A stretch of DNA of 64,000 bases from Syntrophales bacterium (GCA_040767195.1 JAXGPA010000001.1:512001-576000); one strand, 5' to 3'; shown: positions 1-55,899, numbered from the stretch's first letter. Notes: generated by a model not told the origin, from the sequence alone. Program-made: numbers and translations.

Positions 1-1339
1 CCACGTATCCCCTGATCCAGGCGATCCGGATCAGGTTTGGCAGACGGGCCACCCGGTCCAGGTCGAAGTCATGGCGGAAAACGAGAAGGACGTCCACGAG
101 GGAAGAAATCGAATCCCAGTGAGAGATGGGCCTCTCGGGGAAAAAAACGACACGGTACCCGAACCGGGACAGCGCCTTTCCCATGGCCGAGGCGACAAAA
201 TAATCCCCGTAGAGGCTCCGGGGGTGATTTTCCGTGACCGCCATGGCGATGGTAAGGGGACGGGCCGACCAGAAGGGGGGCCGGCCTTCCACCTTCTCCC
301 GCCACATGTCCCGGCCGATGGGGGAAACCCATTTCGGGGGAACGGCCGGCGCGAGAGGGTCGCCGGCAGCGGCGTCCTTTTCTTCGCCTGGCCTGAAAAG
401 GACCACGCTGGCCGGGCAGACCTGGATGCCCCGACCTCTTTCCCGGCAGGCCATGGCGAGATCCAGCCAGTCGTCGGGGGGAAAGGTCCCGCCGGACCGG
501 AGTGCCTCCTCCAGGATACCGGCGTTCCAGCAGGAACAGAGCGGCGAAAATGCCGGGATGGGAGCAGGCCCGTCTCCCCGGTGCAGGGGATCGGCGCAGG
601 GCACCCGGGGCTCCATTTCGATGCGACCGGGCCCGCCCCGGAAAACGAGGCCGTCGGAGGCCACAAACAGGCGATCCCCTCCTCCCTCGTCCTCTCCGCC
701 CGTTTTTTCGACCCTTAGAATTCTCGGCACCGCCGCCGCCGTTTCGGGACTTTTCTCCAGGAGGGTGACAAGGGCGGAAAGCCAGCCCGGCTGAACGCGG
801 ACCCGCTCATCGAGGAAAACGGCATAGGTAAAGGGTCTTTCCCGTTTTGTGAAAAAGTCGGCGGGCCGGGCGGCGGTTTCCCCCTTGTCGATGAGGGTCG
901 CCTGCGGAACTCCCGAGAGACGGCAGACCGTCTCCAGGGAGGCCTTCAGGCGGGGCGGGCAGAGGATGGCGATTTCCCAGTCGCCGTAAAAGGTGTTGGC
1001 CCTCAGGTTCAGGAGGAAGTCCTCGACCCCTCCACTCACGCTTTCCAGGGACACCCAGATCCGGACCTTTCCCGGCGGCTCCTTTCCGGCGTCCGGAATA
1101 TCCGTCCCGAGAAGCGGCAGGATCTCCATCCCCCGACCCCCCCTCGAAGGAACGGCGTCCCGAACCCGCCCGCGGCGACAGGGGACCTTCCCCCCCAGAT
1201 CCCGCCACGTCCTCTTCACGGCGATGGTCCGGGGGCTCTCGAGAAGCCTTTTCCGGAACCGGGCGAGGAAGGGCAGTTTCAGTAAACGCCTCGACCGTGC
1301 CTTTATGGCCAGAAACCCCTGACGGACAGAACGGTTCAT
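1..1339 (-). CDS. Glycosyltransferase, degenerate GT2-like N-terminal part plus CgeB-like part; runs off the left edge (partial)
   Basis: Not in the ORF track. Read by hand from ATG at 1339, the frame stays open to base 1: ...YAVFLDERVRVQPGWLSALVTLLEKSPETAAAVPRIL... then ...TIAMAVTENHPRSLYGDYFVASAMGKALSRFGYRVVFF..., which parallels WGDYHFACALKKYLERRGYAV in the adjacent gene. Confidence 0.7.
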   Translation of the reverse strand, partial: MNRSVRQGFLAIKARSRRLLKLPFLARFRKRLLESPRTIAVKRTWRDLGGKVPCRRGRVRDAVPSRGGRGMEILPLLGTDIPDAGKEPPGKVRIWVSLESVSGGVEDFLLNLRANTFYGDWEIAILCPPRLKASLETVCRLSGVPQATLIDKGETAARPADFFTKRERPFTYAVFLDERVRVQPGWLSALVTLLEKSPETAAAVPRILRVEKTGGEDEGGGDRLFVASDGLVFRGGPGRIEMEPRVPCADPLHRGDGPAPIPAFSPLCSCWNAGILEEALRSGGTFPPDDWLDLAMACRERGRGIQVCPASVVLFRPGEEKDAAAGDPLAPAVPPKWVSPIGRDMWREKVEGRPPFWSARPLTIAMAVTENHPRSLYGDYFVASAMGKALSRFGYRVVFFPERPISHWDSISSLVDVLLVFRHDFDLDRVARLPNLIRIAWIRGYV

Positions 1340-1346
1340 GATTTCC

Positions 1347-2513
1347 CTACCCGGGCTGTCGAAACGGTCGGGTCCTCCGGGACTTCTCCTCGAGGAGGCC
1401 CCGGATCACCTGGTGGATCACCTCCGCCCGGGTATCGAAGCCATGATCCCGTCTGATCATCTCCTTCAGCCTGGCGCCGGCGGATTTCCTTTTCGCCTCG
1501 TCGGAAAGAAGGGTCCGAACGAGGTCTCCCAGCTCGTCCGGCGTCCGGTAGGTGAGAACGGCGTCCCCGAAGAGGCGGGGGATGTCGGCCACGAAATCGG
1601 AAACGATGCAGGCCCCGCAGGCACCGGCGTCAAAGATCCTGTTGGAGATGAACCCGTTTTCCTTCATGGAAGGCCAGTGATCGTTGAGAAGGATCTTACA
1701 GGCGCTGTAATGATGACGCAAGACCTGATTTTCGATGAAGGGGCCCTTGATGTGTTTACCCGGAACAAGGGGTTCCCACATGAGGCCGTACAGGCTCAGG
1801 GGAACGCCGGCGGCGAGGGCGTCCCGAACGGCGGGCCGGAACTGCTTCCTCGAATTCCCCACGAAGAGAATCTCGTCGCCGGCGACTCCCGGCGCCTTTT
1901 CCTCGTAAAAAAGCTCCGGATCGGTGCCTTGAAGAAGGGGGGTCACCGGCACCGGCAGTCTTTTTTCCAGATCCCTGCCGTAACTGAGGGACGCGACGAA
2001 GACGTGATCGTAGAGACCGTATTCATCGAGGGGAACGTGGTCGGGATGGCTGATGTTCCACAGGAGGTTGACCTGGTCCGGGCGGGGGGCGTATCGGCTG
2101 AGCCCCCGAAGAACGATGACGACCTCATCCCGGAAGCCTTTTCTCCTGTGCCAGTCCGGCAGAAGGTCAATCCGGACGGCGTATCCCCGCCTTTCGAGAT
2201 ATTTCTTGAGGGCGCAGGCGAAATGATAATCCCCCCAGAACGGCGCTTCCCTTTTCCGGGGGACGGCGGCCTTGATGGACACCCGGACCGGGGTTTCCGG
2301 AAAGGCTCGCCTCTCCGTGAGGATTGAATCGTCCCGAATCCGTTCTTCCGCCACGTTTTTCTCTCCCGATTTTTTTCCGGGACGCCGTTCAGCAAGAAAG
2401 GATTTCAACCACCGGGGAAGCACCTTTTTCACGTTTTCCAGGGTCGCAAAATCAAGAATAAAAGGTTCAAAAAGACGATCGGGCGGCCTTCCGGGATTTT
2501 CATCCCCGACCAC
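1347..2513 (-). CDS. CgeB-like (Glyco_trans_1_2) glycosyltransferase
   Basis: ORF track 388 aa; motifs WGDYHFA, NLLWNISHP, ILFVGNSR, ILLNDHWPSMKENGFISNRIFDAGACG. Start codon uncertain. Confidence 0.85.
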   Translation of the reverse strand: MVGDENPGRPPDRLFEPFILDFATLENVKKVLPRWLKSFLAERRPGKKSGEKNVAEERIRDDSILTERRAFPETPVRVSIKAAVPRKREAPFWGDYHFACALKKYLERRGYAVRIDLLPDWHRRKGFRDEVVIVLRGLSRYAPRPDQVNLLWNISHPDHVPLDEYGLYDHVFVASLSYGRDLEKRLPVPVTPLLQGTDPELFYEEKAPGVAGDEILFVGNSRKQFRPAVRDALAAGVPLSLYGLMWEPLVPGKHIKGPFIENQVLRHHYSACKILLNDHWPSMKENGFISNRIFDAGACGACIVSDFVADIPRLFGDAVLTYRTPDELGDLVRTLLSDEAKRKSAGARLKEMIRRDHGFDTRAEVIHQVIRGLLEEKSRRTRPFRQPG

Positions 2514-2569: not shown

Positions 2570-5281
2570 TTAGAAATCCCACGCCTCATCGAATGGGTGT
2601 TTTTTAATAGGCAACGTCGTTGAGGCCTTACCGGAAGCACCCGTCCCGTCGACCACCTCGAGGGTGATGACATGCTCGCCCTCGGAAAGCTGTTCCGCCG
2701 TCACCTCCATGCCCTGGCCGAGGGGACCGTCCAGGCTGGAAGACCAGGAGAAAACAGCCGTATCGCCGACGGGGACACCCTCCTCGTCATAAGCGGACCC
2801 GGTGAACGTGAGCGTCGGGTACTTGGTGTAGTAAACAAAGCTTCCGTCGCTGTCCTCTTGCGGCGACTTATTGACGGAAATCCGGACAACCAGTTCCCGG
2901 GCCGGCTTATCGACCCCCAGGGCGTTCAGGCTGTCCAGGAGGGCGCCGTAGGCGTTTACCTGGAGGGCGATGACGGCTTCGCTGGACGCATAGCGGATGT
3001 AATTCGCCGAAGAGACATCCGTTCCGAAGTAGTCATCGTTGACAAAGGCCACCTCCTTCGCGCCGGGCGCCAGGGTCAGTCCCTTCACGGCCACCTCGAG
3101 GCCGTCGTTGCTGTAAAGGGTCAGGGTGATCTCCGCCGGGATCTCCTGTGCGTTGAGAATGGAAATACCCGTCACGGCCGTATCGTTCAGAAGCGGCAGA
3201 ATGCCCGATTTCCCCTCGAGACGGAGGGACCGGGACCCGGAAAGAAGGGTGGCGCCGGTATTGGCAAAAAGCTCGAGGCCGTCGGCCAGTTCCTGATCGG
3301 AAACCACGGCGAGCCAGGACACGCCGGAGGAGAATCCCAACGCGCCGGGATAGGTCGTGTATTTCGAGCGGGCCTCCACGGAAACCTCCTCGGCCCCCAG
3401 GAACAGACCGGCATCGTCATAGGCCGTGATGGTCACCTGGGCGGCATTTTCCGACGGATTGACGAGGACCATCGCCGTCCGCCAGGTTCCATTTTCCACC
3501 ACCTGGGGGAAGATCTGTTCCGCGCCGGTGCGGCCCGAAATCAGGTAGGCCTCCATGGTGTGGGTGTTCATGATCTTCGCCATGGCGACCACGCCGCCCC
3601 GGGAGGGGCTCTCGTCCTTGACGATGAGATAGGACGCCCCGGAAACGGCGCCTTCGGGAAAAATCGTCCCCACGTCGACAAAGGCCTGCTGACCCGGTCC
3701 CAGGAAAAGGGGCCGGGATTCCTCGACCATCCCGTCGGCCAGGACGAGCCGAAGCGTTTTTTCCTCCCCCGTCGTGTTCACGAGGTCGACTTCCGTCGAC
3801 CACATGCTGTTGGAAGCGACCTGGCAGGCATACAGGTCGCCCTGTTCGGCCAGGGCACCGCTTCCCACCGCCGGCACCATGGCGCTGTACTTTTCGAAAG
3901 CGAAGAACCGGTTGCAGCCGACGACGGAATCACCGGAGGCGCGGAAAAGGGCGAACCCCTTTCCTTTCAGGCCGGCGTACTTGGGCTGTATCCCGTCGAT
4001 GATGAACACCTTCCTCTGAAGGGGATAGATGGTCAGTTCTTTTGGCTCGGCAGCCGCCGAGCCGTCCTGGTTGTAGACCTCGAAGGTGCCCCTCAGGGTT
4101 GTAACGCGGCTTGCGTTCACCAGGAAGATCTCGGTGCGCCACCCCTGTTCGGCGGTGACATAGGGGAAATAGAGGACATGGGGCCCGTTGACCGGTTTGG
4201 GGTCCTCCCCGGGATCCACCGGACCGGGCGGCGTCGGGGATGTTTCTGTCTGAACCGTGAACGCCATCTTGCTGACAGGCCCCGAACCCGACGAATTTGT
4301 CGGCTGAATCGACCACTCGTATGTCCCGTCGGCCAGGGCGTCGGGGATCCGGTAAGCGCACTGCCCGTCAGCGGTCACCTCATCGGCCCGGAGGGTCCCG
4401 CTGAAAGCGACGGAGGAATTTCCGCTTACGGCGAGCCGGTAGGCGGTGGCGCTTTTTTCCTCGGTCCATTTGAAAAGGGGCCTGTCATCGGAGGTCGTTC
4501 CGGAGGGCGAAATGAGCGTGACGGCCTTGGGCGGCCCTCCGACGGGAAGGCTGTGGGTCGTGAATGTGACATAGAAATTTTCGTAGAATCCCTCCTGATC
4601 GAATCCCGGATAGACGATCCCGATTCTTCCGGTCTCGTTCTCGAGGCCGGCTACGGTGTTGCCCTTGCCGCGGGAGTAGACCTTGATATAATTGAACTGG
4701 ATGTCGTTGGAGCCCTCATGAAGGACCATCTGGAATGTGACGTTGTAATCGTCTCCAAGCCCGGTAGACGAATCGAAACGAACATTTTTGAACTGAACGA
4801 TGAACTGTCTTTTTCCTGAAACCACCCGGGTTTCGTAGTACACCCTGTGCTTGTCCCCTCACGTGCCGCACGCGAACAGGTCATCCCAGAAGCCGGCGAT
4901 GACGCTGTTGATCGCATCCAACCGGTCGGGAAGACCGTTTCCCTGGTACGTCTGGCCATTGATGACGGCACCGGGATCGAAGGACAGGAGTCCGTTTGTG
5001 GCCACACTTACAGAACTGTAATACTGACCGTAAAAGTTGAAACGAAAACCAATGGGAATGTCGGGAACAACGATGTCTCCCGAAGTTCCTATCTGCACCG
5101 GTATTCCAGTCGACGTCCGCTCGATGTCCGTCCAGGAAAAAGCCGGAGCTCCTTCTTCGTGACTGTCGTAATACCGGTACCCGTAACTGTCAGGTCCCCC
5201 CGTCAGCGCCCAGGACAGAGCCGGCACGGACAGGAAGAGAACGAAAGAGAAGGCCAGGAATTTCATGACGGTTCTCTTCAT
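2570..5281 (-). CDS. Secreted multidomain surface protein and putative selenoprotein (~903 aa): signal peptide, nidogen-like domain with C-G-T-U, Fn3-like domain, four repeats of the shared surface domain, PKD-like C-terminus
   Basis: ORFs 4859..5281 and 2570..4843 share a frame and are separated only by TGA at 4859-4861 (...GAC CTG TTC GCG TGC GGC ACG TGA GGG GAC AAG CAC AGG GTG TAC TAC...). The TGA lies inside the nidogen-like motif FWDDL...VYYET. AGGAGG RBS before ATG 5281; signal peptide MKRTVMKFLAFSFVLFLSVPALSWA. Confidence 0.75.
4818..4834 (-). promoter_or_regulatory. Candidate bacterial SECIS hairpin for UGA at 4859-4861
   Basis: mRNA GAAACC-CGGGU-GGUUUC, a perfect 6-bp stem with a G-rich loop starting 30 nt after the UGA. 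Confidence 0.5.
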
Positions 5282-5412: not shown

Positions 5413-5428
5413 TGCAAGTAACATACCA
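5413..5428 (-). promoter_or_regulatory. sigma54 -24/-12 promoter
   Basis: Minus strand TGGTATGTTACTTGCA = GG-N10-GC with TTGCA, about 130 nt upstream of ATG 5281. Confidence 0.65.
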
Positions 5429-5474: not shown

Positions 5475-7337
5475 CTATTTTGGATCGGACCGCCCCTTTG
5501 CCGATTCCAGGGGAAAACCGGTCAATTTTTCCTCTTCACCGCTTCTTTTGAACCGTTCCCCCGCCGTCAAAAGATACAGCCCCCGGTCCGGCCCGTTGAT
5601 CCGGCAGACCCATTCGGTCACCCGGCCCTCCCTGACAGCCTCGTCCACATCTTCCTTGATGCCGCCGGGGATCCCGTCCCGGGGAATTTCCCTTTCCTTT
5701 TTCCTGAAAAGGAGCATGGCCGCCGTGGCCTCCCACTCTTCGGGCCAGACGACGGCCCTTTGCCGGTAGACGTGCTCCAGGGCATACCGGGCCTGGAAGC
5801 CGGGGGAGCGGATGATCTTCGGGATGAGCGTTTCCGGGACGGCATAGTGGGGCGTTTCATTGTAGTAGAGAATGAGGAAGTCGATATCCCTTTTTTTCAT
5901 GTACGCCAGGTCGAATCCCCCGCCATGAGTGACCTCGTTGTCCATGAGGCCCCGGATATCGACGACGGTCCGTTTCTCCAGATAATAGGGGACCTGGCCG
6001 CACTGGACCGTGGCGACGACGGCCCCGCCGGGAAGCCGGCGGTTCAGGGCCCGCCCCACCACGCCCATGGGGTGAATGTCCAGGTTTTCGTCGGTCAGCC
6101 AGTCCGCCGCCTTTTCCCGGAAATCCGAGGGGTCCTTCAGGTAATGGAGAAGGTTCGTGACCATGAGGGACCGGGTCGGTGTCTCGGGCTTGAAAAAGGG
6201 CGTCACCGGGGAGCGCGCCAGGGCGAGCTGGGCCAGGACGACGGCACCAAGAAGGACGGCGGCCAGGGGGGCGGCGGCCTTCGGGGAAAGGAATTTCTTT
6301 GTCAGGTCGGCCACGGAGAGGAAGCCGGTGCCGACCAGGAGAAAGAAGAGAGGGATGACGGGAATGATGAAGCGGTAAAAATAGACCCTGAAGTCGCCGC
6401 CCACGAAGACCACGAAGGACAGGTACGCCGCCGTGAAGAAAAGAAGGAGCCCGCTTTCCCGGCACCGCTTCGGGTCGGCGAGAGCGGCCAGGACGAAGGG
6501 AACGAGCCACAGGGCTTGGATATCCCGGAAGTAGGATATGACATAGTCGAACCCTCTCAGGACGGCCTTTTCCGAAAACGGGGCCACCTTGACATAATAG
6601 GGGTTCGGCAGGGGATATCCGTAGTACAGGAACTGGGTCACCGTGTACAGGCCGAAGGGGACGGCGAAAAGGACGACGGCCGCCGCCGCCCGCCTGAGAA
6701 TGGCCGTCTCCCTGCTCTTGAGAAAGAGGACGAGGTCGATGACGAGGGAGGCGAGGAGAAAAACCGGCCCCTCGGGCCGGGTGACGGCGCACAGAAAGAA
6801 GAAAATCGCGTAGGCCGGGAAGGCCCGGTTCTCCTCCAGGGTCCGGATGTAGGAAAGGACTCCGGCAAGGGCCAGGAGGGTGAAGAGGAGTGTTTCCATC
6901 CCGTTCTGGGCGGCCAGGACGAAGTGGGCGCTCGTGGCCAGAAGAAGGGGCGCCGCCAGGGACAGCCCCCCCCATGACCGGTTTCTCTCCAGAAGCCACG
7001 ACCAGGAGATCCACAGGACGGCCAGCGCGGAGACGACGCCCAGGTATCGGGACCAGGAGACAACGGAACCGCCGAGACAGGAAACGGCGGCCAGGATGAC
7101 CGTCCAGAGAAAATTGGAGTAGCCCCACACCGGTTCACCGGGGTTGAAGACGAGACCCTGGCCGGCGGCCAGGTTTTCCGCATAGCGGAAGGAGATGAAA
7201 GCGTCCTCCAGGACGGCGAAAAACACCGAAACGGCCAGGACAAGGAAAATCGACGCGGGAACCAGGTACAGGAGAAACTTGAAAAAGAACGGGTATTTTT
7301 TCCTGTTCACGGGAATCGTCTCACCAAGGGGGTCCAT
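5475..7337 (-). CDS. GT-C multi-pass membrane glycosyltransferase (AftB-like / putative pentosyltransferase)
   Basis: [51 protein letters not shown] and GGDF motifs; many hydrophobic segments. Confidence 0.75.
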
Positions 7338-8618
7338 TCACGGGCCGCCTTTCTTCTGCACGTCGATGGCGATGGGAAGATGAACCTTGCAGTTCACCGT
7401 TCGCCGGCTGGCCGGGGGAAGCACCTCGAAGACGCAGGCGTGGTCCCACCAGTCGAGAAAGGCGGGCTGGTCGGGATCGTGGCCGACGGCCGCCGTCACG
7501 CTGTAGTTCCCCTTCAGGAGAGGAAGCCGGAGACGGAAGGTCACCAGGAGCTCTTCCCCCTGCCGGAGAGACGGCAGACTCCGGCCCTCCACCGCCGTGT
7601 TCGTTCCCAGAAGGTCGTTGCCGAACCGGTCCCGGATGATGAAGCCGACGACGGCGGGGCTGCAGTCCACCCGGGCCAGGATACGCACCCCCACGGACAC
7701 GGGCTGATCGAATTCGACAACCTCGAGGACGCCGCCCCCGTCGTCCCGGAGGCGAACCTCCTCGATTCTCGCCTCTCCCGTCCCGATCCGTTTTTCCTTC
7801 CCCCGGACCGCCGCCTTGGTTTCCCCGGCTTCTTTTTTCATCACGGGGGGTTTTTTCGGCGCCTCCTTTTTCTCCTGCTCCCGATGGGCGATGAGCCCGT
7901 GATAGTAGTTCGCCACGTCCTCGGCCTTGCCCTGGAGAACCAGCCTTCCCCTGTCCAGGAACAGGGCTTCCTGGCACAGGCTCTTCACGGCGCCGATGCT
8001 GTGGCTGACAAAGAGGAGGGAGACCTCGCGCTTCTGGAGGGACCGGATCCGGTGGATGCATTTGTGCTGGAAGGCGATGTCCCCCACGGCCAGGGCCTCG
8101 TCGATGACGAGGATGTCCGGTTCCATGTGGATGGTGCAGGCGAAGGCGAGCCGGGCGTACATGCCGCTGGAATAGAGCTTGACGGGCCGGTCGAAGAAAT
8201 CGCCGATGTCGGCGAAGGCTTCGACCTCTTCCATTTTTTCCCGGGTTTCCCTTACGGAAAACCCCATGAGACCGCCGTAGAGCATCACGTTTTCCCGGCC
8301 CGTGAACTCCCTGTTGAACCCCGTGCCCAGCTCGAGGATGGAGGCGACGCGGCCCGCGGTTTTCACCGATCCCGACGTGGGCGCCAGGTAGCCGCAGATC
8401 ATCTTGAGAAGGGTGCTCTTGCCGCTTCCGTTGAAACCCATGATCCCCAGGGTGACGCCTTTCCGAAGCCGGAAGGAAACGTTCCGGAGGGCCCAGAAAT
8501 CCTTGTGAAAGCTCTTTCCGGAAAAGGAAAGGGCCTCCCTGATCCTGTCGTTGGGAGAGGCGTAGATCTTGAACTTCTTCGACAGGTTTTCGCAGATGAC
8601 GGAATATTCTGGTTCCAT
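7338..8618 (-). CDS. wzt: Polysaccharide ABC transporter ATP-binding subunit with Wzt C-terminal domain
   Basis: Walker A GFNGSGKST, YSSGMYARLAF, DEALAVGD, C-terminal GTGEARIEEV domain. Start set at MEPEYSV. Confidence 0.92.
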   Translation of the reverse strand: MEPEYSVICENLSKKFKIYASPNDRIREALSFSGKSFHKDFWALRNVSFRLRKGVTLGIMGFNGSGKSTLLKMICGYLAPTSGSVKTAGRVASILELGTGFNREFTGRENVMLYGGLMGFSVRETREKMEEVEAFADIGDFFDRPVKLYSSGMYARLAFACTIHMEPDILVIDEALAVGDIAFQHKCIHRIRSLQKREVSLLFVSHSIGAVKSLCQEALFLDRGRLVLQGKAEDVANYYHGLIAHREQEKKEAPKKPPVMKKEAGETKAAVRGKEKRIGTGEARIEEVRLRDDGGGVLEVVEFDQPVSVGVRILARVDCSPAVVGFIIRDRFGNDLLGTNTAVEGRSLPSLRQGEELLVTFRLRLPLLKGNYSVTAAVGHDPDQPAFLDWWDHACVFEVLPPASRRTVNCKVHLPIAIDVQKKGGP

Positions 8619-8637
8619 TAAATCCTTCACTGGGCGA

Positions 8638-13647: not shown

Positions 13648-13716
13648 ATGGCTCCTCCATATACGTTTTTCCAGGGGGGTCTTTACGAACCGCCCGAAAT
13701 GCAATTCCATAACCGA

Positions 13717-44974: not shown

Positions 44975-45028
44975 TTCCTGTTCTTACCTTTCACCGGGAT
45001 CCATCATTCCAAACCCGGTTTACCGTTC

Positions 45029-45757: not shown

Positions 45758-46320
45758 GATGCCGCCTTTCTCATGTATCCCGATACGATGATGTCCCCCT
45801 GCACCTGTTCGCCCTCCTTCCCCATGGCGCTTATCCGGACCCGTTCGAAAACGAGGAGCTTGGGCGACGATTCGATACCGTAGAGAACATCCCGGAGCTG
45901 ACGGGGGGAGCAGGTCACCAGGAACTGGACGGGAATGCGCAGGTAACTCTGTTCCTCCAGGTCCTCAGGTCGGAGGACCCGGACCGTCCTTATGTCCACA
46001 CTGGCTCTTCCCGTGATGTCCGCCAGGATATTCTGTATGTCCACCGCCGCCAGGGAGGGCGTGTCCCCGTTCAGAAGCCGGGAGTCGAACCGCTCCACCG
46101 TCCGGGTCAGGGCGAGGAGGCGGCCCTCCAGGTCCCCCGCGTTTTGGACCGTCTCGCGGTACTTGGAAATCTGTTTTGCCTTGACGAGGATCTCCTCGTC
46201 TCCCGGCCACAGCCCCGAAAGGGCGGGGTAAAAACGGTACACGAGGCCCATAAGCAGCAGGACCGCCCCGATGCCGAGAAGCCATTTTCGCTCTTTTGTC
46301 AGTTCTATTTTCCGGATCAT
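45754..46320 (-). CDS. gspM: Type II secretion protein M
   Basis: LTKREK-like N-terminus, TM, LYGIESSPKLLVFE; position in the gsp operon. Confidence 0.8.
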   Translation of the reverse strand: MIRKIELTKERKWLLGIGAVLLLMGLVYRFYPALSGLWPGDEEILVKAKQISKYRETVQNAGDLEGRLLALTRTVERFDSRLLNGDTPSLAAVDIQNILADITGRASVDIRTVRVLRPEDLEEQSYLRIPVQFLVTCSPRQLRDVLYGIESSPKLLVFERVRISAMGKEGEQVQGDIIVSGYMRKAAS

Positions 46321-46325
46321 GAGGG

Positions 46326-47708: not shown

Positions 47709-47735
47709 CCGTTCCTCCCCGTTATTCCGACGCCG

Positions 47736-48725
47736 TCATTCTTCCCGCCAGGACAGGAACCTGTACCCTGTCGGGCTTCTCCGGTCCAGTTCCACGGTCA
47801 CGGAAAGACTGTCTCTGACGCCGCCCTGGCCAGCCTGTCCGGTGGACCTCACGGTGTAGAAGGAAGACAAGGCGAAGGTTAGATAAGGCGTCACCGCGGC
47901 GTAAACGTCCGGCCCCAGGATATCCGCCAGTTCGGAAGTCACCTTGAAATCCTTTTCCTTGCGGTACTCCAGGATCTGTGACACCAGGTCCTCCGTCATG
48001 AGGGGCAATGCAAGAAGCACTTCCGGTGAAGCGGCATTGATGTTGACTCGCTGGGTCACCTTCCGTCTCGCCGATTTCTTGGCCGCGGAATCGGGTTTTC
48101 GTTCCTGGAAAACGGTGAGCCTTTCACTCAGGCCACCGAAGAAAATCTCCGGCGTCATTCCCCTCACGAGAAGCAACTCGTCCACCGAATCGAAATCGCC
48201 GTCCTTGCAGTCATAGGGATCGCTAAGGTTCCTGTAATAGTCATCCTCCGCCCCGTTGACCCGGTGAAAGCCGTCCACATCCCGCCAGTCCTGGATGGAA
48301 TCCACGATGATGTTTTTTTCCTCATCGGTCAGGTCAAAACCGTTCAGCATGACCCGGAGAAGTTTTTCATCCGCCAGATTCAGATTGATCTTCCCCATTT
48401 CATTGCCCAGCATGACGACATAGTGCCCTGTTCCATACGGGATGGGGGGCTGCTCCACATTCACCCGCCATCGCTGCTCCTCTGTCGGCAAGAGGTCTTC
48501 CTCCCCCTCCTTCAACGGTATGAGGTCGTTCCTGAGGAGCTCCACAACGGCGTGGTTGATTCCCGCCAGGGCGATGTAGTACGCCTCGGTTTCTTCCTTG
48601 AAGTTGCGGGTGACGTTCACCTCCGTGCGCATGGCGTGGCAGAACTCACCGACGATGACCATGAGAAGAGCCAACACCCAGAGAACGAGAAAGAGCGCGA
48701 TGCCGCGGTCGTTTCCTTTTATCAT
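47736..48725 (-). CDS. gspK: Minor pseudopilin K
   Basis: RGIALFLVLW, GKINLN, DSIQDWRD, FDSVDELLLVRG, VNINAA. Start set at MIKGNDRG. Confidence 0.92.
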   Translation of the reverse strand: MIKGNDRGIALFLVLWVLALLMVIVGEFCHAMRTEVNVTRNFKEETEAYYIALAGINHAVVELLRNDLIPLKEGEEDLLPTEEQRWRVNVEQPPIPYGTGHYVVMLGNEMGKINLNLADEKLLRVMLNGFDLTDEEKNIIVDSIQDWRDVDGFHRVNGAEDDYYRNLSDPYDCKDGDFDSVDELLLVRGMTPEIFFGGLSERLTVFQERKPDSAAKKSARRKVTQRVNINAASPEVLLALPLMTEDLVSQILEYRKEKDFKVTSELADILGPDVYAAVTPYLTFALSSFYTVRSTGQAGQGGVRDSLSVTVELDRRSPTGYRFLSWREE

Positions 48726-48730
48726 GACCC

Positions 48731-49378
48731 TTACCCGGTATCCACGGTGACGCGCGCCACCACCGTCACGGGGGGTAACGATTCCTCCTCCGTCAGCGAA
48801 ACCCGGACGGCCAGAGGCGCCTTGCCGTCCATCTCGGGGTCCCACGCACTCTGCCATTGGGGCTCCGCGCCTTCCTCCCCCTGTTTCAGGTAAGCGAAGG
48901 AAATGCGATAAAAACCCGGGAGGAGCTCATGAAAATCCTCCTCGGCCACGGCGGCGGGATTTGCCGGGTCGGGAAGAAACACCCGATTTTTTTCGAAGAG
49001 AAAAAGGGACTCCCGGTCCCCTTCCTCCTCTTCACGAACCTCATATTTTGCATAAACCATGCCATATTCGTTTCCTGGGACCAGGGCCACCGAGGAAAGA
49101 AAGGACAGGGATTTTTCGTCTCCCCGGAAAGCGAAGGCGCCGCCGGGATCCTTCACCATGACGGGCCAGGCCATGGAAGCCATCTGCCGCTGGAGAAGAT
49201 CCATGACGATCCGCTCCCGCTGCCTCGTCTCGATGGTGGCTTCCCCTTTTTCCCAGGCCCGGACGCCCAGCCTCAGGGCGCCGAAGACGAGAACGGCGAT
49301 GACGCTGAGGAGAGTGAGCGAGATGAGAAGTTCGAGGAGGGTGAATCCCCGGTTTCCAGGGTTCTCATAGCCTGTCAT
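48731..49378 (-). CDS. gspJ: Minor pseudopilin J
   Basis: Prepilin motif RGFTLLELLISL; start uncertain (ORF extends to 49474). Confidence 0.8.
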   Translation of the reverse strand: MTGYENPGNRGFTLLELLISLTLLSVIAVLVFGALRLGVRAWEKGEATIETRQRERIVMDLLQRQMASMAWPVMVKDPGGAFAFRGDEKSLSFLSSVALVPGNEYGMVYAKYEVREEEEGDRESLFLFEKNRVFLPDPANPAAVAEEDFHELLPGFYRISFAYLKQGEEGAEPQWQSAWDPEMDGKAPLAVRVSLTEEESLPPVTVVARVTVDTG

Positions 49379-49473
49379 GGCGATTTTTGAAGCAGACTCC
49401 ATTTTGCTGCCGTACGGTCGGAGAGGCTTCATTTTCGCCATTGTCCCCGCTCCGGAATCGCGACGCCGGTCCA

Positions 49474-49911
49474 TCAGGCCGCCGCGGGTTCCTTCTCCAG
49501 GATACGGTTTGTCAGGAGTTCGAGAGATTTTTCCCGGAACCCCTGGCTCCAGAACACCCGGACGGTGATTTCAACGACCCGGAAGGGGAGCCTCTCGGCC
49601 TCCTCCTCCGGCAGAGGCACCGGGACGACCGAGGTTTCCCACCGGTAGGCCTTGTCGCACTCACCGGCCAGGAGGCCTTCCTCGAGGGGTGTTTTGAGAA
49701 GCATCTCCTCCATGATCTCCCGGGCGTAGAACACCCCCCGGGTATAGTCCTCCGCGGCTTTTCCCGCTTTCAGCCCTCCGGAAAAAAGCTGAAAGACAAC
49801 GACGAGGGCGATGGCCAGGACGGAAATCGCCACGAGGGTTTCCATGAGGGTGAATCCCGGGGAAAGGCCCTTTCGGGTCCCCTGTGGCAGCGCCTGGTCA
49901 GAACGTTTCAT
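49474..49911 (-). CDS. gspI: Minor pseudopilin I
   Basis: PGFTLMETLVA; VEITVRVFW. Confidence 0.8.
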   Translation of the reverse strand: MKRSDQALPQGTRKGLSPGFTLMETLVAISVLAIALVVVFQLFSGGLKAGKAAEDYTRGVFYAREIMEEMLLKTPLEEGLLAGECDKAYRWETSVVPVPLPEEEAERLPFRVVEITVRVFWSQGFREKSLELLTNRILEKEPAAA

Positions 49912-50485
49912 CGGTGATGTCCTCGATCCGCACCGTGCCGGTTATGAAATCGATGTTTATGCCGTAAGCCCGCTCCCTGTCGTTAACCATCTCCAGGGTC
50001 CCGCCGCTGCATCCGCCGGTAGGCAGGAAAAGGATTTCCACCGTCCCGTCCTCCCACGACTCTTCTCCCTGGTGCACCCGTTTCCACCGGACTCCGGAGG
50101 GGAGAACATATTCCCGCCTCTCCGATCTCTTGCCGTCATCACGTTCCCCTTCCGCCAGAATGTCGTCCTCCCGCCTTTCCTCTTCGGGAAAGAGAACCAT
50201 CCGATTTTTCTCGAAATCGACCTGGACAACCCAGGTCGCTTTCTTCGCCGTTGCCTGGTTCCGGGCATACCGGAGGGACCCCGCCGCCTTCTTCACCGCC
50301 GATGTCAGCTCCAGGTTGGCCAGGGAATCAGACACCCGGGGAACGACAAGAAGAAAGGAAAGGCCGATAAGGGTCAGGACGATGAGAAGCTCGAGAAGGG
50401 TGAACCCCGCCGGCCCCTTTCGGCCGGTCCAAAGAGCCAGGACGGACCCCCGGGCTTCCGGGCCCGGCGTTTCCGAAGGTTTCAA
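49898..50485 (-). CDS. gspH: Minor pseudopilin H
   Basis: AGFTLLELLIVL; FLPTGGCSGG. Confidence 0.82.
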   Translation of the reverse strand: MKPSETPGPEARGSVLALWTGRKGPAGFTLLELLIVLTLIGLSFLLVVPRVSDSLANLELTSAVKKAAGSLRYARNQATAKKATWVVQVDFEKNRMVLFPEEERREDDILAEGERDDGKRSERREYVLPSGVRWKRVHQGEESWEDGTVEILFLPTGGCSGGTLEMVNDRERAYGINIDFITGTVRIEDITDETF

Positions 50486-50497
50486 GGCGTTCCTCGG

Positions 50498-50929
50498 TTA
50501 ATCGGACAGACCCTTCCAGTTCACCACGTCCTCATCTTCCCCTTCGCCGCCCTCTTTCCCGTCGCCGCCGAGGGAAATGATGTCAATTTCCCCGTTTTCC
50601 CCCGGTGACTGGTACACATAGGCGTGCCCCCAGGGATCCACGGGGATTTCCTTGGGAAGGTACGGGCCGTCCCAGCGCTCGGCATCTTCCGGCTTTTCCC
50701 GGAGGGCCTCCAGGCCCTGCTCCGTGGTGGGGTATTTCCCCACGTCGAGCCGATACGTGTCGAGGGCCGTCTCGAAGAGGGCGATCTGGGCCTTTGCGGC
50801 CTTCTGCCTGGACTTGCCCACTTTCCCGAACATCCGGGGGGCCACCAGGGCGGCCAGGAGGCCCAGGATGACCATGACGATCAGAACCTCGATGAGCGTG
50901 AACCCTTTTTCGCCTCTTTTGATTTTCAC
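50498..50929 (-). CDS. gspG: Major pseudopilin G
   Basis: GFTLIEVLIV, ALDTYRLDVGKYP, WDGPYL, DPWGHAY, SLGGDGKEGGEGEDED. Confidence 0.97.
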   Translation of the reverse strand: MKIKRGEKGFTLIEVLIVMVILGLLAALVAPRMFGKVGKSRQKAAKAQIALFETALDTYRLDVGKYPTTEQGLEALREKPEDAERWDGPYLPKEIPVDPWGHAYVYQSPGENGEIDIISLGGDGKEGGEGEDEDVVNWKGLSD

Positions 50930-50942
50930 TGTTTCTCACCTC

Positions 50943-52172
50943 TCAGAATGGCATTTCGTTCATGCTGAAGATGGCCGTCAGCATGGAAATAACGATGAGC
51001 CCCACGATGACCCCCATAACGAGGATCATGGCCGGCTCGAGAAGATTGATGAACCGCTTTACCGCGTCTCTCACGATTTTCTCATAATTTTCGGCGACCC
51101 GGAGGAGCATGGCGTCGAGCCTGCCCGTTTCCTCGCCCACGGTGATCATCTGAACGGCCAGGGACGGAAAGAGGTTCAGGTCGTTCAGGGCCTTGGAAAG
51201 GCGGTCCCCCTCCTTGACCCGGTTGTTGACCCGCTCCAGGGACCGGGCGATCTCCCGGTTGCCGATAATGTCCCGGACGAGGGTCAGGGCCTGGAGGATG
51301 GGAACGCCGCTTTTCGTGAGGGTGCCCAAAGTCCGGGAAAAGCGGGCCACCTCGATCTTCCGGACCAGGTCGCCGCTTACGGGAAGCCGGAGCTTCATCC
51401 GGTCGAAACGCTGCCGTCCCGGGGGGGTGGCGATATAGCGCTTCGCCAGGTAAACGAGCCCGATGACGCAAAGAAGAAGGAGCCAACCGTAATCGCGGAG
51501 GAAGTAACTGAATCCGAGAAGAAGCCGCGTGGTCAGGGGAATGGCCTGGCCCATGTCGGCGAAGATGACGGAGAACTTGGGAATCACGTACGTCATGAGG
51601 ATGATGATGGACACCCCCCCCACGGCGACGAGAAAGAGGGGGTAGACCATGGCGGACCGTACGAAATCGCGGAGTTCCTGGGCGCTTTCCAGAAAAAGGG
51701 CCAGCCGTTCGAGGACGGGGCCGATGACGCCCCCCGTCTCCCCCGCCCGGATCATGTTGACGTAAAAAGGGGAAAACACCCGGGGATACCGGGCCAGGGC
51801 GTCGGAGAGATAGGACCCCCCCTGGACGGCCTTCAGGATCTCGCCGATCACCTCCCGGAAGCGCTCCTTCTCCGTCACGTCGATCTGGATGGCCAGGGCC
51901 CGGTCCACGGGAAGCCCCGCGTTGAGAAGGACGGAAAGGTCCTGGGTGAAGATCATCACGTCCCGGGAGGAAACGACGTTGAAAAACCCCTGGAGGCGTT
52001 CCATGATCTTCCCCTCCAGGTTCTTTCCCGCCCCCCGGGAGAGATCGATCTGAATGGGAACGCACCCCATGGCGTGGATCTTCTCCACGGCCCCCTTCTT
52101 GTCAGCCGCTTCCAGGACGCCGCGGACGACCCGGCCCGACGAATCGGCGGCTTTGTAGGAATACACCGTCAT
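50943..52172 (-). CDS. gspF: Type II secretion inner-membrane platform protein F
   Basis: AGETGG, SAMVYP, GEETGRL, LLEP. Confidence 0.95.
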   Translation of the reverse strand: MTVYSYKAADSSGRVVRGVLEAADKKGAVEKIHAMGCVPIQIDLSRGAGKNLEGKIMERLQGFFNVVSSRDVMIFTQDLSVLLNAGLPVDRALAIQIDVTEKERFREVIGEILKAVQGGSYLSDALARYPRVFSPFYVNMIRAGETGGVIGPVLERLALFLESAQELRDFVRSAMVYPLFLVAVGGVSIIILMTYVIPKFSVIFADMGQAIPLTTRLLLGFSYFLRDYGWLLLLCVIGLVYLAKRYIATPPGRQRFDRMKLRLPVSGDLVRKIEVARFSRTLGTLTKSGVPILQALTLVRDIIGNREIARSLERVNNRVKEGDRLSKALNDLNLFPSLAVQMITVGEETGRLDAMLLRVAENYEKIVRDAVKRFINLLEPAMILVMGVIVGLIVISMLTAIFSMNEMPF

Positions 52173-52190
52173 TTCAATATCTTAAAAAGG

Positions 52191-53747
52191 TCACTGTTCG
52201 AGGGTCACCCGGAGAACCTCGGGAATCGTCGTGATGCCCTGGCGTATCTTGCGCCACCCGTCCTGGCGGAGGGTCACCATGCCGCGGTTTATGGCCACCT
52301 CCCGGATCCGGTCGGTGCTCGAGGACTGTATGATCTCCTTTCGAATGGCGTCGTCCACGGGAAGGTATTCGAAAATGGCCGTCCGTCCCCTGAAGCCCGT
52401 GTTCCGGCAGGCGTCACATCCTTCCCCGATGTAGAAGGTGACATCCCTCAGTTCCTCGGGGCTCACGTTCATGGACCGGATGAGCCGCTCTTCCGGTTCG
52501 TAAGGCTTCCGGCACTGCGGGCAGATGACCCGGACGAGCCGTTGGGCAAGGACCCCGAGCAGGGTGGAGCTGAGAAGAAAACTTTCGACCTCCATGTCGA
52601 GAAGCCGCGTGATCGCCCCCGGGGCGTCGTTCGTGTGGAGGGTGCTGAAGAGAAGGTGACCGGTCAGGGCGGACTGAACGGCGATCTGGGCCGTCTCCCG
52701 GTCCCGAATCTCTCCGACAAGGATGATGTCCGGGTCCTGCCGCACGATGGACCGGAGGCCGTTGGCGAAGGTCAGCCCGATCTTGGCGTTCACGTGAATC
52801 TGGTTGATGCCCCGAAGCTGGTATTCAACGGGGTCTTCCAGGGTGATGATCTTGTTTTCCGAAGAATTGATCTTGTTCAAGGTCGTGTAAAGGGTGGAGG
52901 TCTTCCCGCTTCCCGTGGGGCCCGTCACCAGGATCATGCCGTAGGGCTGGGAAATGAGCTTCAGGTATTCGGGGAGAATCTCCCGGGGAAACCCGATTTT
53001 TTCCAGGTCGAGGATGAGGGTTTCCCGGTCCAGGATCCGCATGACCAGGCTCTCGCCGTAAATCGTCGGGATCGTCGACACCCGGAAATCGATTTCCTTG
53101 TCCAGGACCTTGAGCTTGATCCGCCCGTCCTGGGGAAGGCGCCTTTCGGCGATGTCCAGCTTGGCCATGATCTTGGCCCGGGAGATGATGGCCGCCTGGA
53201 GCCTCGTGGGGGGCGACTCGATTTCGTGGAGGACCCCGTCCACCCGGTAGCGGACCTTGAACTCGTTCTCGAAGGGCTCGAAGTGAATGTCGCTCGCCCT
53301 CATTTCCACGGCGTTCAGGATGAGCCGGTTCACGAGCCGGATGATGGGGGCCTCGGAGGCCAGGTCCCGAAGGTAGTTGGCGTCCTCCTCGGTCCCCGTG
53401 GTGATGTCGAAGACCCCTTTTCCGGCCTCCTCGATGATGGTCTCGATGGACTGGCGGCCCATGCCGTAGAGACGCTCGATGGCCTCGAAAATGTCGTCCT
53501 CCCGGCCCGGCACGACATCAACGGCCAGGCCGTAGGCCATTTTCAGGGCTTCCACGGTGGAAAAATCGGACGGATCCGCCATGGCGATCCGGAGGGTGTT
53601 TTCCTCGAGCTTCAGGGGAACGAACCGGGACTGTTTCATGAACTTGACGGACAGGTTGTCCACGACCACCGGTTCCCTCGGGTAGTCGTGATAGGAGAGG
53701 GTTTTTCCCTGATCCCTGCCCTTGTCCACCTTTATTGAATGCGCCAT
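52191..53747 (-). CDS. gspE: Type II secretion ATPase E
   Basis: ASDIHFEP, GPTGSGKT, EDPVEY, RQDPD, LTGHL, CxxC...CxxC. Confidence 0.97.
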   Translation of the reverse strand: MAHSIKVDKGRDQGKTLSYHDYPREPVVVDNLSVKFMKQSRFVPLKLEENTLRIAMADPSDFSTVEALKMAYGLAVDVVPGREDDIFEAIERLYGMGRQSIETIIEEAGKGVFDITTGTEEDANYLRDLASEAPIIRLVNRLILNAVEMRASDIHFEPFENEFKVRYRVDGVLHEIESPPTRLQAAIISRAKIMAKLDIAERRLPQDGRIKLKVLDKEIDFRVSTIPTIYGESLVMRILDRETLILDLEKIGFPREILPEYLKLISQPYGMILVTGPTGSGKTSTLYTTLNKINSSENKIITLEDPVEYQLRGINQIHVNAKIGLTFANGLRSIVRQDPDIILVGEIRDRETAQIAVQSALTGHLLFSTLHTNDAPGAITRLLDMEVESFLLSSTLLGVLAQRLVRVICPQCRKPYEPEERLIRSMNVSPEELRDVTFYIGEGCDACRNTGFRGRTAIFEYLPVDDAIRKEIIQSSSTDRIREVAINRGMVTLRQDGWRKIRQGITTIPEVLRVTLEQ

Positions 53748-53957: not shown

Positions 53958-55649
53958 TCATGTCTTCCGGTTTCGAACGTCGTCCTTGATTCGCTTTACG
54001 TGTCCCCGGCCGAGCCCCTTGACCTCGCAGCCCAGCTCGAAATACCGGCGGATCCTGGCATCGTCGAGGATGCCGAAACAGTCCACGATGGCGGCGGGAC
54101 GACCCGTCATCTCGACGATCCGGTCCGGGTCCAGGTCCCTGTACGACTCGTGGCGAACCGCCAGGACCACGGCGTCGGCCTCTTTCAGGCAAGCGGCCAG
54201 GTCCTTGTGGACCCGGAGCTCCTTCAGCTTGTCCTGGTTGCGGAAAAACCGCGACCACGAATGACCCGGCGCGGGGTAGGTGTCCTGCTTTTCGAATTCC
54301 CACCAGTGTTTCACGTAGGGGTCGTGGACGGTGACCTCGGCCCCCATCTCGGTAAGCTTCCGGACCACGATCTCCGAACCGCTGTACCGGGTGTCCCCCA
54401 CGTCCTCCCGGTAGGAAGCCCCGAGGACGGCGATCTTCGAGGCCGCCACGATCCTCCCCATGTTCCGCAGGGCGTCCCGGACGAGCTGGGCCGCGTGGAG
54501 TGACCGGGTGTCGTTGATGTCGATGGCCAGAGGGGTCACCCGGAAAATGTCGTCGTCGAAGCCCATGAGCGTGTTGTAGGCCCACACCCCGAGCCCCCCG
54601 TCCTTGGGCAGGCAGTAGCCGCCGATTCCCGGGCCGGGGAAGATCATGTTGGAATGGGTGGGCCGGACCCTGATCGCCTCGATCACCTTGATGAGATCCA
54701 CGCCGTTTCGCTCGGCGAAGAGACTCCATTCGTGAAGGTAGGCGAGAATCGTCGCCCGGTACGAGTTCTCCACGATTTTGCAGGTCTCGCTCTCCAGGGG
54801 CCGGTCGAGGACGGTGAGGGGGAATTTTTCCACGTTCAGAACTTCCGAGAGAAATCGAACCACCCGCTTCTTCGATTCCTCGTTAATGCCGCTGCACACC
54901 CGCCAGAAGTCCCGGATGGAAGAAACGTAATCCCGGCCGGGCATGACCCGCTCAAAGGAGTGGGCGATGAGGGGCTCCCCGGTGATTCCCCGCCTTTCGA
55001 AGGCTTTCTTGATGATCGGGTAGGCCACGTACTCCGTCGTCCCCGGGGGGACCGTCGTTTCGATGAGGACAAGACAGCCCGGTTCGATCTTTTCCCCGAT
55101 GACCCGGAGAGCTTCTTCCAGGGCCCCGATCTCGGCACGTCCCTCCACCACGTTCCCCAGGGCCTCTTTCAGGTAGTCGCACTGGACATCCACCACGACG
55201 ACGTCAGCCAGTTTCAGGACATCGTAGACGAAGGTGGCCGTGAGGGTCTTCTTTTCCGTAACGCACCGCCGGATCATGGGAGCCACCTCGGGGTCCTCCG
55301 CCTCCACCGGGGCGATCCCCTTTTTGATCCACGGGATCTTCCAGTACGACCGAGGGGAGGGCCGCTGCATTCCGATAACGAATTTCTTCGGTTCCCCCGA
55401 ATGCCTGTCCGCCGAATCGGCCACCACCGCCGCCATGACGGCACCGACGAAGCCGATACCCATGACGACGACGATCTCCCGGCCCCGGGCTTTCTCTTCG
55501 TCGACCATCTCCCTGAGACGGTCGAATTCTGTTTCGTAGTCTTCCGGCCCGGGAAGGGTGAACACTTCGCCGTCAGGTGCTATGGAGAGTTCGACACCGT
55601 TTTCCTTCATGTAGCCGATGAGGGCTTCTCTGTTTTCCAGTATGGCCAC
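53958..55649 (-). CDS. Nucleotide-sugar dehydrogenase (UDP-glucose/GDP-mannose dehydrogenase family)
   Basis: GIGFVG, ETTVPPGTT, KIVENSYR, GPGIGGYCLPKD. Confidence 0.92.
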   Translation of the reverse strand: MAILENREALIGYMKENGVELSIAPDGEVFTLPGPEDYETEFDRLREMVDEEKARGREIVVVMGIGFVGAVMAAVVADSADRHSGEPKKFVIGMQRPSPRSYWKIPWIKKGIAPVEAEDPEVAPMIRRCVTEKKTLTATFVYDVLKLADVVVVDVQCDYLKEALGNVVEGRAEIGALEEALRVIGEKIEPGCLVLIETTVPPGTTEYVAYPIIKKAFERRGITGEPLIAHSFERVMPGRDYVSSIRDFWRVCSGINEESKKRVVRFLSEVLNVEKFPLTVLDRPLESETCKIVENSYRATILAYLHEWSLFAERNGVDLIKVIEAIRVRPTHSNMIFPGPGIGGYCLPKDGGLGVWAYNTLMGFDDDIFRVTPLAIDINDTRSLHAAQLVRDALRNMGRIVAASKIAVLGASYREDVGDTRYSGSEIVVRKLTEMGAEVTVHDPYVKHWWEFEKQDTYPAPGHSWSRFFRNQDKLKELRVHKDLAACLKEADAVVLAVRHESYRDLDPDRIVEMTGRPAAIVDCFGILDDARIRRYFELGCEVKGLGRGHVKRIKDDVRNRKT

Positions 55650-55899
55650 GACGAGTTTCCTTTCTGCATTGTTTTTTTCAATTCCGGCCGGCGGATGCTC
55701 CTGAAAAGGCGGTGACGGGAAAGGAGGCGCGGCGGGGCAAAGATGCTTTCGGGCACAGCTCCGCTTTCTCGGTTACATCCCGCCTGCTGGAACCCCACTC
55801 CGGTTCTCTTTTTCAGGAGTTTCTCCGACCGTCCGCCAATCGTATTGTGCCCGTTCCCGGCCCCTGCAAAACCGCCGGGCCGAGGACGGGTTGTTCAGA

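Follow-up and report, generated by a model that had tools for sequence, protein, structure and literature searches.

In silico analysis of a 64,000-nucleotide window from a Syntrophales bacterium (G000:C1:512001-576000; genome of 2.39 Mb in 13 contigs) revealed a type II secretion system (T2SS) gene cluster upstream of genes for secreted proteins and surface glycans. The main subject here is one of these, a gene for a cysteine-rich (Cys-rich) secreted protein that is a candidate surface layer (S-layer) subunit (Table 1). All genes called between 1 and 55.6 kb lie on the minus strand, in agreement with the about 55 kb of co-oriented genes described in an initial annotation made from the sequence, and the gsp cluster, sigma54 module, Wzx, Wzm/Wzt, MBOAT and transglutaminase-like (TGase-like) domain listed there were recovered with NCBIfam and Pfam models. 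The locus extends at least 20 kb past the left end of the window, where a fourth four-repeat protein and further glycan genes were found. An insert with 39% GC is located at 32-36 kb, and its glycan genes differ in a genome of the same genus (G001). DNA near-identical to the window was found in sequencing runs from digesters, sludge and sediments, which together with the related loci suggests an anaerobe of the Desulfobacterota. Searching the window with Rfam gave no hits.

Table 1. Features of the locus, in window positions unless a genome position is given.
Feature	Position	Strand	Basis or remark
Glycosyltransferase-like genes	2..2513	-	Pfam
Secreted NIDO-like selenoprotein candidate, Ig domain and four-repeat module	2570..5281	-	UGA 4859-4861, hairpin 4817-4835
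Sigma54-like site upstream of NIDO-like gene	5414..5428	-	Not conserved: before 1/4 homologues
GT-C-like membrane glycosyltransferase (weak)	5475..7337	-	PF03901 E=3e-4; NF041481 E=3e-4
Wzm/Wzt ABC glycan exporter, Wzt with C-terminal Wzt_C	7338..9459	-	15/29 long loci
MBOAT acyltransferase and partner gene	9507..11949	-	PF03062; accessory, 5/80 loci
Small lipoprotein-like protein, NTF2-like lead	12077..12493	-	Homologues in 24/29 long loci
UshA-like metallophosphoesterase-fold selenoprotein candidate	12490..13710	-	NF041198 119 bits; UGA 13501-13503, hairpin 13470-13489
GP42-like papain-fold ('transglutaminase-like') protein, three clear and one degenerate ASRAH-like repeat	13717..16224	-	Pfam, profile
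Secreted 235-aa protein	16173..16880	-	Weak CT021/DUF3108-like lead, ESM Atlas 0.89-0.92, low recognition
Intrinsic terminator, 12 pairs and T run	16905..16932	-	After Cys-rich gene
Cys-rich S-layer candidate: signal peptide, Ig/pilin-like beta domain, C-terminal ASRAH-like domain	16966..18318	-	Frame broken
Sigma70-like promoter, 11/12 consensus matches	18432..18461	-	Upstream of Cys-rich gene
Secreted CAP-domain protein, SdrD_B-like tail	18483..19937	-	PF00188; in 26/29 long loci
Sigma54 -24/-12 promoter-like site	19951..19965	-	Motif scan; 13 nt before CAP start codon
NAD-dependent epimerase, UbiA-family (decaprenyl-phosphate phosphoribosyltransferase-like), membrane TPR protein	20050..24634	-	NCBIfam, Pfam
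Secreted cargo: N-terminal four-repeat ASRAH-like module and Big_2 domain	24712..26949	-	Module model, structure match
Secreted 591-aa protein	27049..28824	-	Gene call
Variable glycan cassette: GT2, DUF2304, Wzx, DXD-type GT, GT2 x2, GT4 x2	28849..36690	-	Partly 39% GC
Periplasmic binding protein, histidine kinase, sigma54 response regulator, TonB-dependent receptor	36695..42583	-	Pfam
Second T2SS cluster gspE-F-G-H-I-J-K-L-M-C-D	42632..53747	-	NCBIfam and Pfam
Nucleotide-sugar dehydrogenase, heads gsp operon	53958..55649	-	TIGR03026 188 bits, cut-off 189.8
Rhodanese four-repeat protein, outside window	G000:C1:503322-505346		Profile search

Conservation of the core genes

The gene neighbourhood was compared in 401 genomes of the phylum and in loci anchored on the TGase-like gene (best 80 of 189 matches); gene content was counted with 10-kb flanks in 29 long loci. 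Among the 401 genomes, the Cys-rich alignment gave 16 matches, by match range 13 to the gene itself and 3 to its shared C-terminal domain only, while the TGase-like domain was present in 15 genomes and the four-repeat module in 18. In 7/7 long genomic loci, where the TGase-like gene and helper genes were syntenic too, the gsp cluster shared a contig with the Cys-rich gene and lay upstream of it: directly in G387, G365 and G203, via the binding protein, kinase, regulator, TonB receptor and CAP genes in G448, G398 and G426, and with glycan genes inserted in between in G001, as in the window genome (G000). The Cys-rich gene in turn preceded the TGase-like gene in 60 of the 61 anchored loci with at least 1.5 kb of upstream sequence. 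In the 29 long loci the Cys-rich gene occurred in 29, CAP in 26, the lipoprotein gene in 24, the UshA-like gene in 22, the TonB receptor in 21 and the regulator in 20, compared to 15 for Wzm/Wzt, 12 for the TMTC-like gene and 2 for MBOAT; gsp fell within the 10-kb flank in only 5. Because of these counts we distinguish a core, made up of the T2SS, the Cys-rich gene, the TGase-like gene and helper genes, from variable glycan genes, and the 55 kb, initially put forward as a single system, is not conserved as a whole. The co-occurrence check suggested in the initial annotation was nevertheless passed, as gsp, Cys-rich and four-repeat proteins recur together in relatives.

The core order was kept in Syntrophales, Desulfobacterales, Desulfobulbia and other named lineages. 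The named loci nearest to the window's TGase-like gene include metagenome-assembled genomes of Syntrophales/Syntrophaceae and Desulfobacterales, and one named isolate genome, Desulfatitalea alkaliphila M08but (L081), carries the cassette, its candidate Cys-rich protein being divergent (E=1e-9, 6 Cys). TGase-like cassette genes were also seen on short contigs that had been assigned to Patescibacteria and Thermoplasmata bins (L031, L094), probably by misbinning. A chance accumulation of envelope genes that have no function in common, within an island for surface polysaccharides, is hardly credible as an explanation of the locus. The outer parts of the 55 kb do vary between genomes and include the low-GC insert, but the core order is kept across lineages, along with a shared domain and a conserved promoter; for the core this explanation is largely refuted, and it holds for the accessory glycan genes only.

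The gsp cluster is a second copy, the other one being located at G000:C1:447-462 kb. Its GspE is 70-74% identical to the GspE of three distant cassettes and 47% identical to the other GspE of the same genome, so that the T2SS of the locus has orthologues of its own. The genes gspE, G, M and D scored above their cut-offs, the remaining gsp genes matched below cut-off, C being only gspC-like, and no prepilin peptidase was called within the cluster. The same gsp order was found in G001, G398 and G426, and also in G448, there without a called gspG.

In relatives, the module of binding protein, histidine kinase, response regulator and TonB receptor sits between gspD and CAP. A sigma54 motif was found before CAP in 23 of 37 loci, compared to 0.1 in shuffles. 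It stood 12-17 nt from the CAP ATG in 16/25, so the mRNA would be near-leaderless. The motif was rare before other genes (3/53 for the Cys-rich gene). Counted over the whole window, it did not exceed chance (25 vs 40.6), the signal arising only by position across loci. We infer that the adjacent sigma54 regulator would control the CAP and coat genes. A few kb upstream of the locus, and also in G001, an UpxY/NusG-family antiterminator is encoded (60105-60617, minus strand; NF033644 just above cut-off), which may aid transcription of the long operon.

The Cys-rich protein, its predicted ring and the four-repeat module

The Cys-rich proteins form a family of 610 clusters at 50% identity, with a median of 19 Cys, a net negative charge and about 14% Ser+Thr. 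They carry a Sec-type signal peptide, N-termini being judged by eye, and a lipobox-like motif in 1/148. No family for the protein was found in Pfam or NCBIfam, a PDB sequence search matched signal peptides only, and the ESM Atlas hits (0.83) are at the level of a lead. A locus search with the C-terminal half of the window gene gave no confirmed locus, and the family alignment was too variable for pattern building. A terminator-like hairpin followed 44 of 59 Cys-rich homologues compared to 2 of 47 CAP genes; the sigma70-like promoter was not enriched before homologues (6/53 vs 3.1 in shuffles). Of the gene's own promoter and terminator, both seen in the window, the terminator is therefore the conserved feature and the promoter is not. 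The share of C-ending codons was highest in the Cys-rich gene in 22/48 loci (about 7 expected) and above the mean of its neighbours in 42/48. It was also the most divergent of five cassette genes, with a median identity of 0.23 vs 0.28-0.61 in 18 loci. Across relatives codon bias, terminator and divergence are thus S-layer-like, and the proposal of an S-layer candidate is retained.

In other assemblies, too, the coat gene was often frameshifted (L063, L077, L085) or cut by contig ends (G142, G173, G203, G315), as expected for a hypervariable gene. Some genomes contain two Cys-rich genes or two cassettes (L039, L079, L036/L037, G315), which suggests alternative coats. The Cys-rich N-terminal domain was also observed at the tail of large multidomain proteins, P0146 (3865 aa) and P0111 (844 aa), the latter with BACON and DUF4214 domains. 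Contigs from RNA libraries of three studies (X3, X17, X19) showed greater depth on the Cys-rich gene, and in X19 longer pieces only there; they were dropped as evidence of abundance, since contig depth and gaps cannot rank genes.

The model of the Cys-rich protein (pLDDT 68.5) has two beta domains. The first is Ig-like, its best structural matches being Gram-positive pilins and adhesins (Z 5.8-7.2, a range the tool calls common). The C-terminal domain matched TM1070 with Z 10.3 (root mean square deviation, rmsd, 2.9; 99 residues aligned) and ASRT with Z 8.9, the next unrelated structure reaching 7.2; Foldseek gave only low TM-scores for the Cys-rich and four-repeat models. Members of the ASRAH superfamily, such as ASRT and TM1070, are described as tetramers or as dyads and tetrads of repeats, with sugar binding proposed (PMC2739507). 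The C-terminal domain and the repeats of the four-repeat module are both predicted to have this fold. The Asn that closes strand 2 in ASRAH proteins is kept: N24, N133 and N332 are invariant and N232 is conserved in at least 90% in the four repeats, and TN/N appears in the Cys-rich family consensus. The Trp at the start of strand 1 is not kept; strand 1 begins with xYFPY/H, and a conserved Trp lies ahead of strand 2.

Modelled in four copies, residues 255-366 were predicted to form a ring of four, with an ipSAE of 0.90 (best control 0.00), a contact agreement between runs of at least 96% and pLDDT of at least 88. In a two-copy calibration set, 20 of 30 solved homo-pairs attained the ipSAE mark, as did 1 of 23 single chains. 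The ring contacts run head to tail, and the near-invariant P264/Y265 sit in the pocket of the neighbour.

The C-terminal domain is shared, as initially noted, by three large secreted proteins, and the profile search found these three and the fourth outside the window. Among 6921 genome ORFs (open reading frames), the next-best matches of the domain profile were the NIDO-like, rhodanese, Big_2 and TGase-like proteins, and the profile aligned to all four repeats of the module (hhalign 96.8-75%). The module was modelled as a single rigid unit (pLDDT 94, pTM 0.91), and one repeat matched TM1070 with Z 14.1 (rmsd 2.0, 101 aligned; next unrelated 6.3); no solved chain among the Foldseek matches listed spans the whole module. 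Of the best 120 of 286 homologues, 88 have the module at the C-terminus, 18 at the N-terminus and 7 at an internal position, and in 7 it stands alone; its fusion partners are S8 and C1 peptidases, CotH, deacetylase, nuclease, RCC1 and PKD domains, among others. The full module was present in 14 genomes, 11 of which also carry the cassette (15/401 overall). The shared domain was also seen far from the locus, at G000:C1:858318-859994 and C8:28503-29087. We infer that the module is a tag by which secreted enzymes attach to the coat, the four fused repeats mimicking the ring. As a tag of roughly 410 residues, it may sort many unrelated enzymes to the diderm surface and would be usable for display.

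Taken together, we consider the genes a conserved export-and-coat locus whose product, from a protein family not listed so far, is a T2SS-exported and probably square S-layer of the VapA/Slr4/NpdA kind, with a probability of roughly 0.6. The second T2SS would export the Cys-rich protein to the outer surface, which it would tile in groups of four held together by the ASRAH-like domain at its C-terminus. The four-ring would anchor on a surface glycan exported by Wzm/Wzt, the variable Cys-rich domain would make the second lattice contact, and enzymes with four fused repeats would attach to the coat. If true, a different and widespread coat would be added for syntrophs and for sulfate-reducing bacteria from digesters and sediments, on the surface that partners and phage encounter, and the ASRAH domain would gain a concrete role.

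Several points weigh against such an S-layer, which is proposed here from sequence and predicted models. The Cys-rich gene of the window is split into ORFs of 252 and 189 aa by indels and a TAA near 17560-17690. We read this break as a probable consensus error of the assembly over a hypervariable gene, because short-read contigs carry different letters there, in many alleles, the copy in G001 is intact (376 aa, 24 Cys, same context) and other frameshifts occur in the glycan genes. The codon bias of the window gene is ordinary (rank 535/1624), and the number of Cys is even in 72 family members and odd in 76, giving no parity signal. Residues 40-79 in the N-terminal region of the model are of low confidence, so disulfides find no support in it. 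Identity to TM1070 and ASRT is 11-12%, and the four-ring result may reflect their solved tetramer; moreover, its calibration used two copies, the ring covers one domain, and a ring is no lattice. The draft genomes G107, G340 and G445 contain the module with no detected cassette. Distribution is patchy, as 1/9 other genomes of the family matched and 8/9 gave no hit, searched with a C-terminal query only. As the loci are related to each other, some of them sharing a genome, the counts overstate independence. Finally, ASRAH tetrads occur on Chloroflexi amidases, for which the accessible text of the source makes no S-layer claim (PMC2739507).

A crystalline layer may also be absent altogether: the T2SS would then export tetrameric glycan-binding proteins of the surface or biofilm matrix. 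In that case the Cys-rich protein would be an adhesin or fibre subunit of high abundance, and the module would hold on to polysaccharide of the cell itself as a lectin-like anchor. The pilin and adhesin matches of the N-terminal domain and the genomes with module and no cassette would suit this arrangement, as would the sugar binding proposed for ASRAH dyads and tetrads in the accessible text (PMC2739507). However, those Z values lie in the common range, the position of the gene after the gsp cluster matches three proven S-layer loci as far as their sources were available, and the Cys-rich gene, which has a terminator and a codon bias, mostly occurs as one copy. We therefore regard an adhesin or matrix protein as unlikely, while granting it a real share of probability. 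The S-layer reading could also be taken further: four fused ASRAH repeats would replace one node of the lattice as a plug-in, Slr4-type layers would use the same node, the NIDO-like protein would be a cargo and the module would constitute a display code throughout the Desulfobacterota. This extension is put forward tentatively, with the odds against it.

Probable helper enzymes, selenoprotein candidates and glycan genes

The TGase-like gene encodes a domain like the Phytophthora GP42 transglutaminase (PF16683 E=5e-12; PDB 3tw5 E=1e-20). In GP42 a His directly follows the catalytic Cys ('CH' motif; PMC10318531, in the part available). The catalytic Cys was present in 80/80 loci, the adjacent His in 14/80, and the window has Cys-Tyr. 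The possible coat cross-linking suggested in the initial annotation is thus not upheld; judged from sequence, cross-linking, proteolysis and acyl transfer are each possible. Together with the genes for CAP, the UshA-like protein and the lipoprotein, the TGase-like gene likely assists maturation or assembly. The NTF2-like lead for the lipoprotein stems from one homologue (PF05223 E=0.006), and homologues of the 235-aa protein occurred in 24/80 loci. The 591-aa protein had no Pfam or NCBIfam hit and was not found in the relative loci examined.

The UGAs of both selenoprotein candidates are in frame and were present in independent short-read contigs. Sequencing errors were rejected, as the UGAs were seen in these contigs and in homologues, and both look like selenocysteine codons, as had been noted for these two secreted proteins. 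Homologues of the UshA-like gene were present in 39 loci, of which 34 have the UGA at the same site, 2 have Cys there and 3 are unreadable; the hairpin covers the GGL codons after the UGA. A neighbouring Cys was found at 17/34 selenocysteine sites; the window motif has none. The protein scored below the curated cut-offs (NF041198 119 of 275 bits, NF049981 28 of 140 bits) and lacks CxU/CxxU in the window. It looks like a variant relative of these two families (PMC13188914, Table 1): the metallophosphoesterase fold and a selenocysteine in an N-terminal loop are common to all, whereas the protein here is shorter and half of its members have no CxU/CxxU cysteine. A second UshA-like paralogue, 30% identical, was observed at G000:C11:76046-76642.

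The NIDO-like label comes from PF06119 on the best database matches. Its UGA was found without difference in the contig of run X1, and the database cluster P0176 is split at the same point. In the window and all 4 homologues found in loci (L032, L034, L100, L107) the UGA falls in one column, and the hairpin after it shows compensatory changes in 6/8 pairs over 5 sequences. A partner Cys was present in 0/4 homologues, and no Cys homologue at the selenocysteine position appeared among the 11 distant homologues with the motif shown, of 28. A pseudogene was rejected, as at least 15 of the 24 listed downstream strain differences are silent. The family is absent from the 119 families in Table 1 of PMC13188914 and had no NCBIfam hit; the BSepDB supplement contains neither 'NIDO' nor 'UshA' and is uninformative. 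The NIDO-like protein looks like a selenoprotein family outside that 119-family inventory, secreted, and split at the UGA by gene callers.

Of the selenocysteine machinery, selA and selB scored above cut-off in the assembly, and FdhA genes with TGA were present. Neither selD nor tRNA-Sec was found in this assembly, in which tmRNA and several tRNAs were also missed at default settings; selD is present in G001. A genome-wide UGA scan, which is insensitive, found FdhA-type sites and neither window gene.

The glycan genes vary between genomes. The cassette at 28849..36690 contains several apparent frameshifts, and its content differs in G001. Both genes annotated as GT-C transferases are present, their assignment being weak: one has the E-values given in Table 1, and the membrane TPR protein (20050-22521) is tentatively labelled TMTC/GT-C-like. 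A third GT-C-like membrane protein was observed in a low-GC stretch at 61957-63456 (minus strand; PMT_2 E=2e-4), and a 1504-aa multidomain glycan enzyme (methyltransferase-GT2-GT4) just left of the window (G000:C1:506819-511333, plus strand). MBOAT and its partner gene probably serve glycan acylation.

In Aeromonas salmonicida, wzm and wzt flank the T2SS and vapA genes, O-antigen is missing from a wzt mutant, and lipopolysaccharide (LPS) tethers the layer, according to the available text of PMC4483657. An O-antigen ligase gene abuts gspE in 2/2 loci scanned (G387, G203); in G000 the single Wzy_C gene lies elsewhere. Because of the Aeromonas tether and the ligase beside gspE, we favour anchoring of the coat on a surface glycan exported by Wzm/Wzt, likely O-antigen, which by this analogy fits better than the glycosylation of the subunit initially proposed.

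The complete model of the initial annotation, in which GT-C, Wzm/Wzt and Wzx glycosylate the coat, the TGase cross-links it and the selenoproteins make disulfides, is improbable as a whole. The invariant catalytic Cys, the TMTC-like genes in 12/29 long loci, the Ser+Thr content of the family and the selenocysteine kept in 34/39 UshA-like loci are in its favour, but the GP42 His is mostly missing, the glycan genes vary, and ligase and wzt point to O-antigen in the Aeromonas text available. The selenoproteins have no thioredoxin or other redox fold and no conserved partner Cys, so that thiol/disulfide chemistry is not borne out, and the G001 locus shows neither the UshA-like nor the NIDO-like gene.

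In G387 (L023:13700-14836, minus strand) the second gene downstream from the TGase-like one encodes a multiheme cytochrome c554 domain, and G365 has a similar gene; in these loci gspD directly precedes the coat gene. The c554-domain gene may correspond to the C-terminal end of a UshA-like fusion that is split at a UGA. Together with the TonB receptor and sensor in the cassette and the two selenoproteins, it could indicate a redox or metal system at the syntroph surface, with metal bound by the Cys and electrons or metals moved by selenoproteins that in some loci are fused to a multiheme cytochrome. We consider this very improbable: CxxCH occurs in only 3/148 family members, for which reason heme binding by the coat protein was rejected, the window cassette has no heme protein, and the cargo domains are mostly hydrolases and adhesion folds.

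Comparison with known systems

Similar to the locus described here, slr4, npdA and vapA each adjoin a gsp cluster, and the Slr4 lattice is p4 and the A-layer tetragonal and LPS-tethered, as given in the available parts of PMC7821379, PMC10765051 and PMC4483657. The A. salmonicida A-layer locus (spsE-L, with vapA in the wzm/wzt cluster) likewise has an S-layer-type gene beside its own T2SS and Wzm/Wzt. In contrast to it, the present locus contains a Cys-rich subunit, CAP, TGase-like, selenoprotein and four-repeat cargo genes and a sigma54 module. The comparison concerns locus layout; homology to VapA was neither tested nor seen.

With Slr4 of Pseudoalteromonas tunicata and NpdA of Paracidovorax the Cys-rich protein has in common a Sec signal peptide, a gene beside gsp and a patchy distribution. 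Both belong to a different phylum, and the accessible texts describe no cargo tag for them. Weak Slr4 matches (PF19526) fell on the C-terminal domain of P0147 (E=8e-4) and of the G426 candidate gene (E=0.5). Their scores, 19.1 and 11 bits, stay below the cut-off of 25 bits, as did all 5 genomes searched, and 1/40 family proteins matched. The Desulfobacterota S-layers named in a survey, in its available part, are hexagonal beta-helix lattices (bioRxiv 2024.05.28.596244). In the literature searched we found no description of the Cys-rich family or of a link between ASRAH and S-layers, although Table S2 of the survey preprint, outside this search, may list a member; the parts of PMC9105555 and the BSepDB supplement available contain nothing bearing on either.

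With the known ASRAH proteins, namely ASRT, Thermotoga TM1070, Chloroflexi amidase tetrads and actinobacterial dyads, the domain shares the eight-stranded sandwich, the strand-2 Asn and four-foldness (PMC2739507, available part). Unlike in these, a single domain sits at the end of a T2SS-linked coat candidate, tetrads serve as tags on many types of enzyme, and the SHE..C ligand motif is absent. Anchor domains that bind a glycan of the cell surface and occur on the S-layer protein as well as on many enzymes displayed there are also known, namely SLH and the CWB2 of C. difficile. While those are helical, three-fold modules of Gram-positive bacteria, the predicted module described here is a four-fold beta module in diderms.

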